From: Escherichia phage EcM-vB1
Length of the DNA stretch: 64,000 bases
Sequence record: PV574017.1
Reading direction: 5' to 3' (one strand)
Positions 10,829 to 28,222 of this stretch are shown one piece after another (position 1 is the stretch's first letter; each line of letters begins with the position of its first letter). The notes beneath the pieces were generated by a model. That model ran no database searches and was not told the DNA's origin. It was given only the letters and a program-made list of their open reading frames with translations. A program made the translations under genes and the position numbers.

Positions 10829-10904
10829 GCGCTCTTAGCTCAATGGATAGAGCAGTAGCCTTCTAAGCTATTGGTTACAGGTTCGAGTCCTGTAGGGCGC
10901 ACCA
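10829..10904 (+). tRNA. tRNA-Arg(TCT): tRNA-Arg, anticodon TCT (reads AGA), CCA encoded
   Basis: manual cloverleaf: acceptor GCGCTCT/AGGGCGC, D-stem GCTC/GAGC, anticodon stem GTAGC/GCTAT with loop CTTCTAA, T-arm ACAGG-TTCGAGT-CCTGT, discriminator A then CCA. Confidence 0.9.
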
Positions 10905-10923
10905 AATCTAATAGGAGGCAGTT

Positions 10924-11223
10924 ATGAGTTGGGGTGGTGTAATATCCCTAATCTGTATCTTCCTTGTCTGCATAGCCCTTACAGGCTGCGTACAGAGCCG
11001 TCCTGATGGATGGTGTGCAGTAGCAGTGGAAGGTGTTTGTGTTTCTCGCTGGCATAAAGGTGAGAAGGTTCCTTCTGGTGAAATTGATATGCGCTGGAAC
11101 GGAGCAACCTGCTCTAATGCTAACCCCTCTGTCAACGAAGAGAAATCTACACCGGATAATGTTGTGATTGATACAGCGTTGTGGTGTGGTGGCTCTACAG
11201 TTACCACTGGTAAGGAGTGGTGA
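10924..11223 (+). CDS. putative lipoprotein, Cys-rich
   Basis: AGGAGG RBS; signal peptide ending in lipobox L-T-G-C (IALTGC). Confidence 0.6.
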   Translation: MSWGGVISLICIFLVCIALTGCVQSRPDGWCAVAVEGVCVSRWHKGEKVPSGEIDMRWNGATCSNANPSVNEEKSTPDNVVIDTALWCGGSTVTTGKEW

Positions 11224-11224
11224 T

Positions 11225-11422
11225 ATGAATTACACATCTACAAAGGTGTTAATTGATTCGATTAATAACTCCTCAGAAACTGTACAGGAGCGTTTAATAC
11301 AAGATGTTAGCAATGACATTAAGTTCTTTGTTAAGAGCCGCCTGTTAGGTTCTAAGGCTTATTACAGAGCTAAAGCAGAGCTTACAAAGAGGGTGTTTCT
11401 TTTACATGGTTTGGTATATTAA
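11225..11422 (+). CDS. hypothetical protein
   Basis: ATG overlapping upstream stop (TGATATG); in frame with track ORF 11168-11422. Confidence 0.4.
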   Translation: MNYTSTKVLIDSINNSSETVQERLIQDVSNDIKFFVKSRLLGSKAYYRAKAELTKRVFLLHGLVY

Positions 11423-11431
11423 GGAACTTAT

Positions 11432-24347: not shown

Positions 24348-24600
24348 GAAAAGGCAGGCTCTTCGGAGACTTGAAGCCAAGTATTTAATGCTACGGTGCA
24401 AAATCAACCGACATGAACGTTTCGTTGAAGCTGCACAAACCAAAAACTTTGAATCATCAGTGGAGATGTTCAAGACCCAACTTTCTTTTATAGGAAAGAA
24501 CAGGAACAAGTGTGGGATGAAATTCGTTCGTTCTACTAAGCTCAAGGATTCCAAGGAGGAAGAGCATGTCAAAGATCATTTTGGGAGACACAGGTTGTAA
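24337..24600 (+). CDS. hypothetical protein
   Basis: ORF in track. Confidence 0.35.
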   Translation: MNLEKRQALRRLEAKYLMLRCKINRHERFVEAAQTKNFESSVEMFKTQLSFIGKNRNKCGMKFVRSTKLKDSKEEEHVKDHFGRHRL

Positions 24601-26356
24601 GGAATGTATCTCTCATGGTCGTGATAAAACCCACAACCACATGATTCTCTTCCGTAACGAAGAGACTGGTGAGGAGTGGGGAAGTTGTAACCGTTGTGGG
24701 AATTACGAAGTGTTCGAAAAGGGCACTACGCCTACTCCAAACGAGAAGAAAGAGTTATCCCCTGAAGAATTGAGAGAAGTCTTAGATGATTGCTTAGAGC
24801 TTCCTCAGGGTGAGCTTACTCGACGTTTAATCCCTAAAGCTGTATCAGAGCGTTTTGAGTGTCGTATTGGCCTTAGTCAAACTGATGGTCAGACACCAGA
24901 CAGTTACTTCTTTCCTCGTGAACGTGATGGAAACATTGTCGGATACGAGGTTAAGTTGCTAGATAGTAAGAAGTTCTATTACGTCGGCAGTGTGAAAGAA
25001 GCAGATTTGTTCGGTATGGCACAAGCTCAACGTGGAGATGTGTACAACAAGAAGCTCTTCATTTTTGAAGACCCGCTATCCTGTATGTCAGGTTTCCATG
25101 TCCTTACAGCTTTTACAAATGCAACAAACATTAAACCAGCATGTGTTTCTTTACCGTTCGGTGCAGGTTCAATCTCTTCTGTGTTGTCTCGTAATCGAGA
25201 CTTCGTAAATGGTTTTGAGGAGGTTGTGCTCTGCATGGACAACGATGATGCAGGTGAGATAGCTTTAACAAAAGGTCGTTCTTTATTCCCTCATGTCAAG
25301 TTTGCTCGTATCCCTAAAGGAACTTTCACATACAACGGCGTGGAGAAAGAGATTAAGGATGCGAATGACATGCTTCTGTCTGGTCGTGGTCAAGAGTTAT
25401 TCAACATTCTCAAGTATTCAGCAAAGCGGGAATCTCCTGCTGGAGCTGTAACAATCTTTGATTGTCTTGATGATGCTCTGAAGAAAGCGGAGTGGGGTAT
25501 CCCGTATCCGTGGAAGACTCTGAATGAGATGACCTTCGGTATTCGATGGGGAGAGGTGGTAGCAATTGGTGGTGGAGTAGGGAGTGGTAAAACACTCATC
25601 GCTCACGAGCTGGTTGCTCATCTGTGCTTAGAGCATGGTTTTAATGGAGGTGGCTTCTTCTTGGAAGAGAAGGTAGGCATGTCTGTTAAGAACATTGCTG
25701 GTAAGTCAGCATCAATTCCTTTCCACCGACCTGATGTTGAATATGATGAGGAGGATTTGCGTAATGAAGCACTTCGTTATGCAGACAAATTCTTCTTGTA
25801 TGACAACTTCGGACAGAACGAATGGGAAGACATTAAACAGTGTATCCGTTTCTGGGTAGTTGAAAACCAGTGTAAGTTTATCATCCTTGATAACATTACC
25901 GCTCTGGTGTCTCATTTAACACCTTCAGAGATTAACACTGAAATCAGTAAGATTGCTTCCGAGCTTGCTGGTATGTGTAAAGAATTAGACTTTACCGCTT
26001 TCGTGTTGTCTCACCTTAATGCTCCGGCAGGTGGTGCTCCTCATGAAGAAGGTGGACAGGTACGTGAAGTACAGTTCACTGGTTCTCGTTCCCTTATGCG
26101 TTGGTGTCAGTGTATCATTGGCTTTGAGCGTGACAAGCAAGCTGATGGCTTAGCTAAGAACCTCTCAGTCATTCGATTACTGAAAGAACGTAACTACGGT
26201 CAGACAGGTGTCTGTTATACTAAGTATATCAGTGAAACCGGTAGACTTGTAGAAAGGGAAGACTTTGAAGTTGATGAAGATAATCCATTCGTTTTAACTA
26301 ACGGAGAGGATGCAGCTTCTCTCGTCAACCAAGCAGATGGAGCTTCACCGTGGTAA
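24566..26356 (+). CDS. DNA primase-helicase (T7 gp4-like)
   Basis: N-terminal zinc ribbon CKECISHG...CNRCGNYE, Toprim-like region, Walker [10 protein letters not shown], Walker [11 protein letters not shown]. Confidence 0.85.
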
Positions 26357-26907
26357 AGAAAAAGAAGAAAGTGTTTGCATTCGATATCGAGAGTGATGCA
26401 CTGTACGATGACATAACTAAAGTATGGTGTATTTATATCTTTGATGTTGAAACTGGTGAAAGGTGGGGCTATCGGCCTCACCAAATTGAAGATGGGATTC
26501 GTAAACTTACAGAAGCAGATGTACTAGTGGGTCATAATATTATTGACTTCGACTTACCTGCTCTGAAAAAGATGTATCCCTCTTTGATTAAATATAATTT
26601 TAACGTCTTTGACACTTTATGTCTTAGTCGATATCTTAAACCTGACCGTATTGGTGACAGTCCTGAGTATCCGAAAGGCGACCCTAGACGTGGCCCAAGA
26701 GGTCATGGTTTGAAGCAATGGGGTGAGTTCTTAGAGGAACTTAAAGGTGACTACGGTGAGCAAGAGGAAGCATGGGATGCTTTCACTGAAGATATGTTTA
26801 CTTATTGTGAACAGGACGTTAACTTAACTGTTAAGGTTTATCTTTTCTTGTGTGAACTCACGGGATTTGACCCTTACGACCCACCTTCATTATATTGGAA
26901 AATGTAA
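26350..26907 (+). CDS. DNA polymerase 3'-5' exonuclease (proofreading) domain, stand-alone gene
   Basis: Exo I FAFDIES, Exo [15 protein letters not shown], Exo III YCEQDV. Confidence 0.75.
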
Positions 26908-26908
26908 A

Positions 26909-28222
26909 ATGATTGTTATCCCGATTAACCAAATTGAAGATAAGGTTGCTCAACAACCTGATATCACTGTTGGTCGTCACTTTATTGAACAGTTGATTAA
27001 CAACAACTTGATTCCAGATGGTATCTGTCCTATTATTACTGGTGGGGCTGTTCGTGATGCTGTGCTTAATAACACAGCTCCACATGACATTGATATCTTT
27101 ATTGTCAGAGGACAAACACCAAGAACTCAAAATACTTTCGTCCCAACTGATCGTTGGCAAGCTCTTGGAAGAGAGATTGAAAGTAATGTGAAGGAATGGC
27201 TAGAGTCACAAGATATTGAATATGCATCCCTTCTTGCTGAATCTACAGATGAGCTGTATACTGGGACTTCTCAACTATCGTTTACTGATATTATTGAGTT
27301 TCAGTGGAATGGAACCCGCATTCAGTTCATGTTTAATTATCCCACTTCTATCGAAGAAGTTCTAGATAATTTTCCTATGATGTGTCGTGGTGCTATGACT
27401 CTTGATAAGCTATTCATGACCGTTCATGGATACTTGGCTATGACTTCTCCAATTCCAGTGGTTGTGACTGCTCGAGAGATTAAATATGTCCACAAGAAGT
27501 GGCCTAACTCACAAGTGCTAAGGTTCCAAACTCCGGGAGTTGCTTTTCATTATATGGCACATGCTCGGCAACAACCTATACCTCAGATGGTCAGGGATCT
27601 AGTTAATAATCAAGGTCAAGTATCTCTTATTAGCGACACAGCAAGTCCTCAATATTGTGTTGACCAAGACATGAGTCGATTCTTTGGAATCCCCTATGAA
27701 GAGATTCAGTTAATGTCAAGCACACATGGCTCTAGCCAGATTCATGCGTATTGGTCTGAAGGGTTGACAAATTTAATGACTAACACGGGTGGTGATCTGC
27801 TTGGTCGAGAAGAGGAACCTAACCGACACAATGCAATTGAAGGGGTTTTTGTAGCCCCTGCAATGCGTCGAGCACAAGAGTCACGAAGAGTAAGCCCTAC
27901 TCGTAGAACATCTTTTGAAGAAGCTCTTGGTATTACAAGTGATTCTATGGAGAGATGGATGGCTAGTCCTTCTCGTGGTCGACCAAACGGCTTAACTGTT
28001 AGCGCACGTCAGTTCTCTGGTCAGGGTTTTGCTGTTGGTGATATCAACGCCCCTTCTCGTGTTATCTGGACTGATGAAGGTATGGAACAAGATTTAGGAG
28101 ATAGTCTCGCTGATCGCTTTATTGCTAACAACCCTGAAGTATTAGAACCTCAAACCCGTACAGTTCGGTTTGCCGATGAAGCGGGTCGTGGAATCTCTTT
28201 TGACATGGAAACAAATAACTAA
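26909..28222 (+). CDS. nucleotidyltransferase of CCA-adding / poly(A) polymerase head-domain type, with long C-terminal extension
   Basis: ICPIITGGAVRDAVLNNTAPHDIDIFIV matches GGxVRD...DxD motif. Confidence 0.6.
   Translation: MIVIPINQIEDKVAQQPDITVGRHFIEQLINNNLIPDGICPIITGGAVRDAVLNNTAPHDIDIFIVRGQTPRTQNTFVPTDRWQALGREIESNVKEWLESQDIEYASLLAESTDELYTGTSQLSFTDIIEFQWNGTRIQFMFNYPTSIEEVLDNFPMMCRGAMTLDKLFMTVHGYLAMTSPIPVVVTAREIKYVHKKWPNSQVLRFQTPGVAFHYMAHARQQPIPQMVRDLVNNQGQVSLISDTASPQYCVDQDMSRFFGIPYEEIQLMSSTHGSSQIHAYWSEGLTNLMTNTGGDLLGREEEPNRHNAIEGVFVAPAMRRAQESRRVSPTRRTSFEEALGITSDSMERWMASPSRGRPNGLTVSARQFSGQGFAVGDINAPSRVIWTDEGMEQDLGDSLADRFIANNPEVLEPQTRTVRFADEAGRGISFDMETNN

Follow-up and report, generated by a model that had tools for sequence, protein, structure and literature searches.

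A predicted head-only nucleotidyltransferase and a tRNA-Arg(UCU) in Escherichia phage EcM-vB1

The canonical CCA-adding enzymes of phages (PHROG 2244) are full-length class II nucleotidyltransferases of about 390 residues, carried by jumbo phages that have many tRNAs and RNA-repair genes (PMC7824862). Gad2, a 400-residue phage protein that cancels Gabija defence, is also a nucleotidyltransferase by AlphaFold prediction. We analyzed a 64,000-nucleotide stretch of Escherichia phage EcM-vB1 (PV574017.1), hereafter the window, which contains a tRNA-Arg(UCU) gene at 10829..10904 and a nucleotidyltransferase gene at 26909..28222, both on the plus strand. EcM-vB1 is a Kuravirus (phiEco32/SU10-like), a prolate E. 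coli podophage of the subfamily Gordonclarkvirinae. Part of the picture is already known. The codon-supply conclusion for the tRNA was published for Kuravirus YF01 (PMC9965538), and the SU10 homologue of the nucleotidyltransferase, CDS74, has been labelled 'class II CCA-adding enzyme-like' since 2014 (PMC4281155), as it is in GenBank. In the 2025 BASEL report, the authors flag the nucleotidyltransferase and the adjoining dCTP deaminase as possible DNA-modification genes (PMC11990801). What we add, from sequence comparison and structure prediction, is that the nucleotidyltransferase is a head-only derivative without the determinants of CCA addition and tRNA binding, that its gene is an accessory insert independent of tRNA content, and that it groups with PHROG 1614 and Gad2. 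Our joint reading, tentative and a little short of even confidence, is that the two are independent features: a codon-supply tRNA, and an accessory head-only nucleotidyltransferase in a counter-defence or replication-linked role.

Catalytic head and family of the nucleotidyltransferase

The open reading frame runs from ATG 26909 to a stop codon ending at 28222 and encodes 437 residues. The original prediction gave the same coordinates and a length of 438 residues, a count that includes the stop. Because all homologues begin MI-x-IP, we place the start at ATG 26909 and not at the upstream GTG 26852. Residues 45-62 (27041..27094, plus strand; translation GGAVRDAVLNNTAPHDID) form motif A of a Pol-beta-type active site, composed of a glycine/helix element (GGAVRD, 45-50) and the two catalytic aspartates of DID (60-62). 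The GGxVRD...DxD head motif, already recognized in the original prediction, is intact and does not vary in the family: each of the 27-39 aligned members keeps G45, G46, R49, D50, D60 and D62, and position 127 is always acidic. M1, F64, Y117, I128, Q139, P156, Y193 and K197 are likewise invariant in the family alignment. Since the invariance of motif A extends across members at only 22-37% identity to the window protein, the motif is not there by chance. From the alignment, the catalytic site is predicted to be intact and the protein to belong to the Pol-beta superfamily.

The motifs that give class II enzymes their selectivity are missing. Class II motif B is RRD, which recognizes the ribose 2'-OH, and no RRD or RR occurs in residues 1-300. 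Class II motif D is EDxxR, the amino-acid template selecting C and A, and no [ED]Dxx[RK] occurs in the nucleotidyltransferase. In E. coli Cca, by comparison, GGAVRD is found at residue 7, RRD at residue 90 and EDPLR at residue 130. In the phage protein the equivalent sites fall at residues ~153-200 (27365..27508, plus strand), a placement that comes from spacing and an hhalign alignment and not from structural superposition; the invariant P156, Y193 and K197 lie here. The motif B position reads DNFPMMCRGAM, and within LDNFP only P156 is invariant. The motif D position (PVVVTAREIKYVHKKWP) reads PVVVTAREIKY, with P-h-h...R-D/E-x-x-Y-x-x-K-K as the family consensus.

AlphaFold modelled residues 1-300 at pLDDT 87 and pTM 0.84 when given a deeper alignment; with Kuravirus sequences alone the pLDDT was 34, and it was the addition of distant members that raised it to 87. 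In a Foldseek search of the PDB with this model, class II enzymes that add CCA, CC or A fill all of the top 40 places (E from 3e-5), at query-normalised TM-scores of only 0.30-0.41. The superposable part is 143-166 residues, set against class II enzymes of 340-520 residues, and covers the head with some of the neck. The head fold is nearest to that of class II enzymes, and the ANT/Lnu (kanamycin/lincosamide) enzymes are the closest match neither in fold nor in sequence. Like E. coli Cca and PcnB, Bst CCA (1miv) and the A. aeolicus enzyme (4wby), the phage protein has motif A and a helical region after the head. These class II enzymes differ in having RRD, EDxxR and a tRNA-binding body and tail, whereas the phage protein has about 25 extra head residues with a conserved W-L-E-D helix and a C-terminal tail predicted to be disordered. 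Neither a tRNA-binding body nor a tail domain is present in the phage protein; family conservation stops near residue 215, and the shortest members have 274 residues. Because RRD, EDxxR, body and tail are all absent while the catalytic head is kept, the elements for selectivity and for holding tRNA appear to have been lost. By sequence and model, then, the head would descend from the class II type, with loss of the ribose sensor, the base template and the tRNA-binding body and tail.

The long extension behind the head had been described in the original prediction as having no recognisable motif. This does not hold for residues ~150-290, which are modelled as a high-confidence fold and carry conserved motifs as far as ~215. 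Low confidence is confined to the C-terminal ~147 residues (~291-437; 27779..28219, plus strand), where the AlphaFold pLDDT is <50 and the Kuravirus and family alignments show an indel-rich, polar-rich, variable and lineage-specific tail; the tails of other members are shorter or missing. In these models the segment is probably disordered. Several homologues have aromatic C-termini (EVW, WQW, WTF, WDW, FNF). The C-terminus of the neighbouring primase/helicase (window 26300-26356) is acidic and has tryptophan as its last residue (...NQADGASPW), which recalls the tail of T7 gp4. The aromatic C-termini of the helicase and of the nucleotidyltransferase homologues may be docking motifs. Such termini, together with short conserved segments within the long variable tail, would suit a catalytically dead scaffold or adaptor whose disordered tail brings partners to the replisome. 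That explanation is highly improbable, however, as all catalytic-site residues are invariant in very divergent members, which argues for retained enzymatic activity.

The Pfam PolyA_pol head (PF01743) scores 20.5-21.4 bits over residues 43-122, under the cut-off of 23, and reaches E <=0.01 in only 9 of 39 family members. The window protein has no match among the NCBIfam CCA/PcnB models, where a single distant member reaches 14.8 bits (cut-off 290), and PADLOC returned no match for it. A sequence search of the PDB with the family profile found motif A only (CCA-adding enzyme 6ibp, 27 residues, E 0.0035). The HMM classification suggested in the original prediction is therefore below threshold for PolyA_pol (20.5 against 23) and empty for NCBIfam, and it does not turn the protein into a kanamycin-type enzyme. 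Against PHROGs, phrog_12715 covers the full length (E 1.6e-230), and phrog_1614 is next best at E 3.4e-7. The match to phrog_2244 is at E 0.029 and over 25 residues only; the PHROG 2244 enzymes belong to the same superfamily and are likewise phage-carried, and they differ in being full-length class II enzymes from tRNA-rich phages.

Close homologues are Kuravirus proteins without exception. Searched exhaustively with an HMM, 1.84 billion representative proteins yielded 31 family members, none of which is a canonical CCA-adding enzyme. The distant members have 274-482 residues, with a common core of about 210. When three divergent members were used as tblastn queries, each found 97 of 50,697 phage records; these are Escherichia or Shigella phages and three others, and each named record is a member of the Gordonclarkvirinae. 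The homologue is expressed in SU10, where CDS74 was detected by one peptide in mass spectrometry of a PEG-precipitated preparation made without CsCl, among other non-structural proteins (PMC4281155). A single peptide of this kind is not evidence for packaging in the virion.

Outside the family, the closest proteins are those of PHROG 1614. Two distant family members match phrog_1614 better than the window protein does (E 3.7e-10 and 5.3e-9), but because the best PHROG of the window protein is 12715, its family is a sister of PHROG 1614 and not part of it. Fold matches in BFVD are of the same kind, small 'PolyA_pol head' proteins of podophages with 170-254 residues. In LKD16 (Krylovirinae), which has no tRNA, the helicase gene overlaps at its end with ORF16, whose 199 residues include GGAARD...DID. 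The homologue in WRT (Ghunavirus), gp21, overlaps the start of the primase/helicase gene, and that in phi80-18, g27, lies immediately upstream of PolA. A tblastn search with LKD16 ORF16 found 225 phage records. Emajogi gp22, also of the phrog_1614 type, is cytotoxic at high induction, and a 'Gad2 family' label is used in some phages (bioRxiv 10.64898/2026.09.15.751885). The PHROG 1614 proteins resemble the nucleotidyltransferase in being head-only and in having genes that overlap or abut helicase, primase or PolA genes; they differ in lacking a long tail and in occurring in phage families without tRNAs. They are also more class II-like, as E. coli Cca matches phrog_1614 at E 4.5e-10 over 163 residues. 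We place the nucleotidyltransferase, on sequence comparison, in a putative phage-specific radiation of head-only class II-like enzymes together with PHROG 1614 and, more distantly, Gad2. The nucleotidyltransferase would then be one branch of a little-studied radiation, derived from CCA enzymes and sitting in the replication modules of hundreds of podophages.

tRNA-Arg(UCU) and gene neighbourhood

ARAGORN finds one tRNA only in the window, the tRNA-Arg(TCT) at 10829-10904 on the plus strand, and the gene scores 72.4 bits against Rfam RF00005 (gathering score 29). A single tRNA reading AGA, as the original prediction had it, is what the window contains. The 3' CCA is encoded in the gene at 10902-10904, right behind the discriminator A10901, so that the tRNA ends ...GGGCGCA-CCA. 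In the open reading frame set of this analysis, AGA accounts for 18% of Arg codons in plus-strand genes, at 10.6 per 1000 codons, and for 25% in late genes, at 12.3 per 1000. The codon-usage check proposed in the original prediction thus finds AGA heavily used, in agreement with the report on YF01, where AGA is 20% of phage Arg codons and has the largest fold increase among all codons; in E. coli K-12 it is among the least-used Arg codons (PMC9965538). With a canonical tRNA and a phage-enriched codon, the latter by the host comparison of that study, tRNA-Arg(UCU) is an ordinary codon-supply tRNA with nothing unusual about it. It resembles the codon-compensating phage tRNAs in being a single tRNA that fits a codon over-used by the phage.

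Genes resembling tRNA-Arg(TCT) occur in 1181 phage records from many kinds of phage. With the tRNA-Arg of an unrelated Pseudomonas jumbo phage, OBP, the window tRNA shares 94.7% identity from end to end, whereas in most E. coli genome records its best match reaches only 60-80%. This difference suggests, at the sequence level, a phage-borne tRNA lineage that moves between phages. In YF01 (OQ025076.1) only the first 30 nucleotides of the tRNA match, at 68377-68406, and an HNH endonuclease is annotated at that spot. A homing endonuclease may interrupt the YF01 tRNA gene or lie beside it.

The nucleotidyltransferase gene has different company. A T7 gp4-like primase/helicase (24566..26356, plus strand; Pfam DnaB_C and Toprim, and annotation) overlaps by 7 nucleotides the gene for a PolA 3'-5' exonuclease subunit (26350..26907, plus strand; Pfam DNA_pol_A_exo1, PHROG 'DNA polymerase exonuclease subunit'). 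The nucleotidyltransferase ATG begins 1 nucleotide past the exonuclease stop codon (junction ATGTAAAATG), an arrangement from which the two genes are predicted to be translationally coupled. A dCTP deaminase gene follows downstream (28232..28765, plus strand; Pfam DCD, E 3.6e-34). In metagenomic relatives at 22-23% identity (L003 and L004), the four genes follow each other in the same succession of helicase, exonuclease, nucleotidyltransferase and dCTP deaminase, and the synteny also holds in L012. In Proteus phage J3S (Grimontviridae), helicase, exonuclease and dCTP deaminase are consecutive without the nucleotidyltransferase, and the LUZ24-like phage Clew-3 has the cluster from amidoligase to gamma-glutamyl cyclotransferase (GGCT), the helicase and the exonuclease, also without it. 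Because these sister lineages have the same module without the gene, we regard it as a lineage-specific accessory insert, independent of tRNA content. It is not a core part of the replisome either, as the sister lineages replicate with helicase, exonuclease and PolA in its absence. That the nucleotidyltransferase might be a missing replicative polymerase was also considered and is ruled out by the PolA polymerase subunit at 35438-37282 (plus strand; Pfam DNA_pol_A, E 2.5e-23, and annotation).

The tRNA and nucleotidyltransferase genes lie 16 kb apart in the window. The nucleotidyltransferase family occurs in 97 phage records, against the 1181 with tRNA-Arg(TCT)-like genes. The most distant family members have no tRNA in their 10 kb flanks, a span that would also miss the window tRNA at its 16 kb. 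With this distance, the locked position in the replication module and a distribution independent of tRNAs, the original suggestion that tRNA and enzyme belong together is not supported, and the two are probably unrelated. Of the shared purposes proposed for them, tRNA supply is borne out by the enrichment of AGA, and repair of tRNA 3' ends is not: the enzyme lacks motifs B and D, body and tail, and the CCA is encoded in the gene.

Such a repair role would make the protein a minimal CCA-adding or tRNA 3'-end repair enzyme that keeps phage and host tRNAs chargeable, for example against acceptor-end nucleases or toxins. Its nearest solved folds are indeed class II tRNA nucleotidyltransferases, its motif A is of the style of CCA-adding enzymes, and the SU10 and GenBank label says as much. 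Jumbo phages do carry canonical CCA-adding enzymes as RNA-repair genes (PMC7824862), and OLD-family nucleases, relatives of GajA, can reportedly target tRNA (PMC12445682; PMC12904381). However, the absent elements are those required for CCA specificity and tRNA binding, the phage tRNA brings its own CCA, and the host E. coli has cca already. Moreover, there are tRNA-rich relatives without the enzyme and tRNA-free phages with related enzymes; Privateer, a relative of J3S, has an RtcB RNA ligase and four tRNAs, one of them Arg-TCT (PMC7881722). None of the genome annotations examined showed an RNA ligase or any other partner in RNA repair for the nucleotidyltransferase. We consider tRNA repair unlikely.

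Gad2, restriction resistance and possible roles

Gad2 is the only relative with a phenotype. The Gad2 of SPbetaL7 (ORF159) is toxic, and a homologue is also found in Brevibacillus. The precomputed Pfam label Gad2 (PF26128) is attached to 30 of 44 Kuravirus members, weakly (E up to 0.001). We built a profile of nine Gad2 sequences from published supplementary sequences; used as an HMM, it gives 11-25 bits against the family. An hhalign comparison of the family with this profile gave a probability of 86% (E 5e-6) over 100 columns, a match that depends largely on motif A. When the family was compared with single sequences (Cca, LKD16 ORF16, Bl Gad2), hhalign aligned motif A alone and at low probability. 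In the extended hhalign alignment four motifs are collinear. Motif A is GG...D-x-D-h-F on both sides; a following strand reads I-Q-x-M in the family and I-Q-x-I in Gad2; the motif B site reads FP-x-MCRGA in the family and FDFT-x-CMGA in Gad2; and the motif D site reads P-V-V...R-x-x-K-Y-x-x-KK in the family and P-I-V...R-x-x-K-Y-x-x-KG in Gad2. Both lack RRD and EDxxR, and P-h-V...R-x-x-K-Y is common to them. Gad2 differs in having GG-x-I-T-S where the family has GGAVRD, and its C-terminal domain of ~200 residues has no counterpart in the nucleotidyltransferase; the tails do not align. Gabija is not mentioned for the defence panel in the available text of the BASEL report (PMC11990801).

The toxicity of relatives can also be read another way. 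As a mini poly(A) polymerase, or as an RNA-tailing enzyme of another kind, the protein might mark host or early phage transcripts for decay and so contribute to host shut-off or to a temporal switch in gene expression. Cytotoxicity of a phrog_1614-type relative when over-expressed (bioRxiv 10.64898/2026.09.15.751885) and of SPbetaL7 Gad2 is consistent with this, and loss of motif D, the CCA template, is expected for a tailing enzyme without specificity. However, an RNA-binding domain is not found in the nucleotidyltransferase, and RNA tailing would leave unexplained both the restriction to a single lineage and the fixed position in the replication module. An acidic core could be counted against it as well, but is uninformative, since the head and neck of E. 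coli Cca are equally acidic (-9); for this reason we dropped the acidic core as an argument against nucleic-acid binding. We regard RNA tailing as decidedly unlikely.

According to the BASEL report, the Gordonclarkvirinae strongly resist restriction-modification systems without known modification (PMC11990801). The window still has 30 EcoRV, 10 EcoRI and 10 EcoKI sites. Counted over the whole window, the 64 palindromic hexamers have a median observed/expected ratio of 0.55 and 11 of them are absent. Only 3 CCWGG sites occur where 83 would be expected, and GATC is at half its expected number. By contrast, GATATC (EcoRV) and AACGTT stand at about twice the expected number, which is odd given the reported EcoRV resistance.

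A DNA-acting enzyme, whether it modifies DNA covalently or tails DNA 3' ends or primers at the replisome, would explain the restriction resistance. Several observations favour it. Synteny of the gene with those for the helicase and the PolA exonuclease is strict, translational coupling to them is predicted, and dCTP deaminase adjoins it. In three subfamilies of the Autographiviridae, the genes of related enzymes lie against PolA or helicase genes. Loss of RRD, and with it of ribose sensing, is compatible with the use of dNTPs, and the remaining restriction sites, the resistance without known modification and the gene pair pointed out in the BASEL report fit the same idea. On the other hand, the enzyme is dispensed with in sister lineages whose replication uses this set of helicase, exonuclease and PolA, and dCTP deaminase with the annotated ThyX is an ordinary dTTP supply that gives no sign of modified DNA. 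Strong avoidance of palindromes and CCWGG suggests DNA that is exposed to restriction and not globally protected. We know of no nucleotidyltransferase of this fold that modifies DNA bases. A DNA-acting enzyme is thus doubtful as an explanation. That the nucleotidyltransferase is itself behind the resistance of the Gordonclarkvirinae, by nucleotidylating phage DNA ends, a nucleotide cofactor or defence nucleases, is a specific proposal that we hold to be quite unlikely. If it were true, Gad2, PHROG 1614 and this family would make up a widespread class of anti-defence nucleotidyltransferases built from the head of a CCA-adding enzyme.

In our analysis, the nucleotidyltransferase is most likely an accessory counter-defence or replication-linked enzyme. 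We infer a role of this kind away from tRNA because Gad2, the only relative with a phenotype, is anti-defence. The counter-defence side also draws on the unexplained restriction resistance and the pointer to the gene beside dCTP deaminase in the BASEL report, and on the 30 EcoRV, 10 EcoRI and 10 EcoKI sites that persist despite palindrome avoidance. In the mechanism we propose, the nucleotidyltransferase would be expressed jointly with the replication genes and would carry out template-independent transfer of a nucleotide to something other than a tRNA 3' end, with DNA ends, nucleotides and host proteins as candidate targets. As with Gad2, the likely purpose would be to shield phage DNA from host defence while it replicates.

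A number of points weigh against this account. The nearest solved folds are all RNA 3'-end enzymes, and an RNA substrate, tRNA included, is possible. Adjacency to replication genes is weaker than it looks, because replication genes make up most of the middle regions of small podophages. The SU10 authors place the tRNA region and the nucleotidyltransferase gene in one early, sigma-70-driven block, so that co-expression of the enzyme with the tRNA is possible. No characterised function was found in the literature for the nucleotidyltransferase gene or the PHROG 1614 proteins, and the mechanism of Gad2 was still unreported in 2026 (PMC12904381). The resemblance to Gad2 has its own weaknesses. Without motif A, the match to the Gad2 profile falls to E 0.077. 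The control comparison, of the family with Cca and PcnB, gave 15% over 26 columns, with a control profile of only two sequences. The window protein matches none of the Gad2 PHROGs (18122, 27100, 16176, 4400), and a distant member, P0056, matches phrog_4400 at E 0.009 only. Nor can a transitive argument through PHROGs separate Gad2-like from CCA-like proteins, because Cca matches the hub family phrog_1614 no less well than the present family and Gad2. In view of the dependence on motif A, the lack of a Gad2 PHROG match and the match of Cca to phrog_1614, we treat Gad2 as a relative in the same radiation and not as a family assignment.

Solving the nucleotidyltransferase might nonetheless explain the mechanism of Gad2 and of the whole class. 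The Gordonclarkvirinae are phage-therapy candidates with a broad host range, which adds to the interest of their unexplained restriction resistance. Bas90, of the same group, plates on E. coli K-12 with restored O16 O-antigen, and a clean knockout with an enzyme assay is perhaps feasible there.

Other genes of the window

Early and middle genes of the window are on the plus strand up to ~45.6 kb, and the structural genes beyond are on the minus strand. Between 24.5 and 29 kb the sequence matches Escherichia phage EcP-vB at 100% identity and SU10, Bas90 and further Kuravirus phages at 94-96%. Two separate genes, 8.5 kb apart, encode the family A DNA polymerase, one for a 185-residue exonuclease subunit and one for a 614-residue polymerase subunit. 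A stand-alone exonuclease/polymerase split of PolA is also seen in the Privateer-like and LUZ24-like relatives. In some Kuravirus relatives an HNH homing endonuclease lies right behind the dCTP deaminase (L012, 4862-5371), and none is there in the window.

Genes for a COOH-NH2 ligase, an amidoligase, a glutamine amidotransferase, an ATP-grasp-like protein and a gamma-glutamyl cyclotransferase are clustered at 14975-24347. In the Gordonclarkvirinae this amidoligase cluster is immediately 5' of the helicase, and it is partly present in the LUZ24-like and Privateer-like phages (loci compared: window, L003, L004, L010 and L011). Two of its genes appear damaged in the window (19679-21740 and 22231-23423). 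The glutamine amidotransferase has 547 residues in the window and 676 in Bas90, with ~420 nucleotides upstream free of an open reading frame. The ATP-grasp-like gene, which encodes 397 residues in Bas90, is represented in the window by two open reading frames of 151 and 236 residues. The damage to these two genes could be due to frameshifts, to decay into pseudogenes or to assembly errors.

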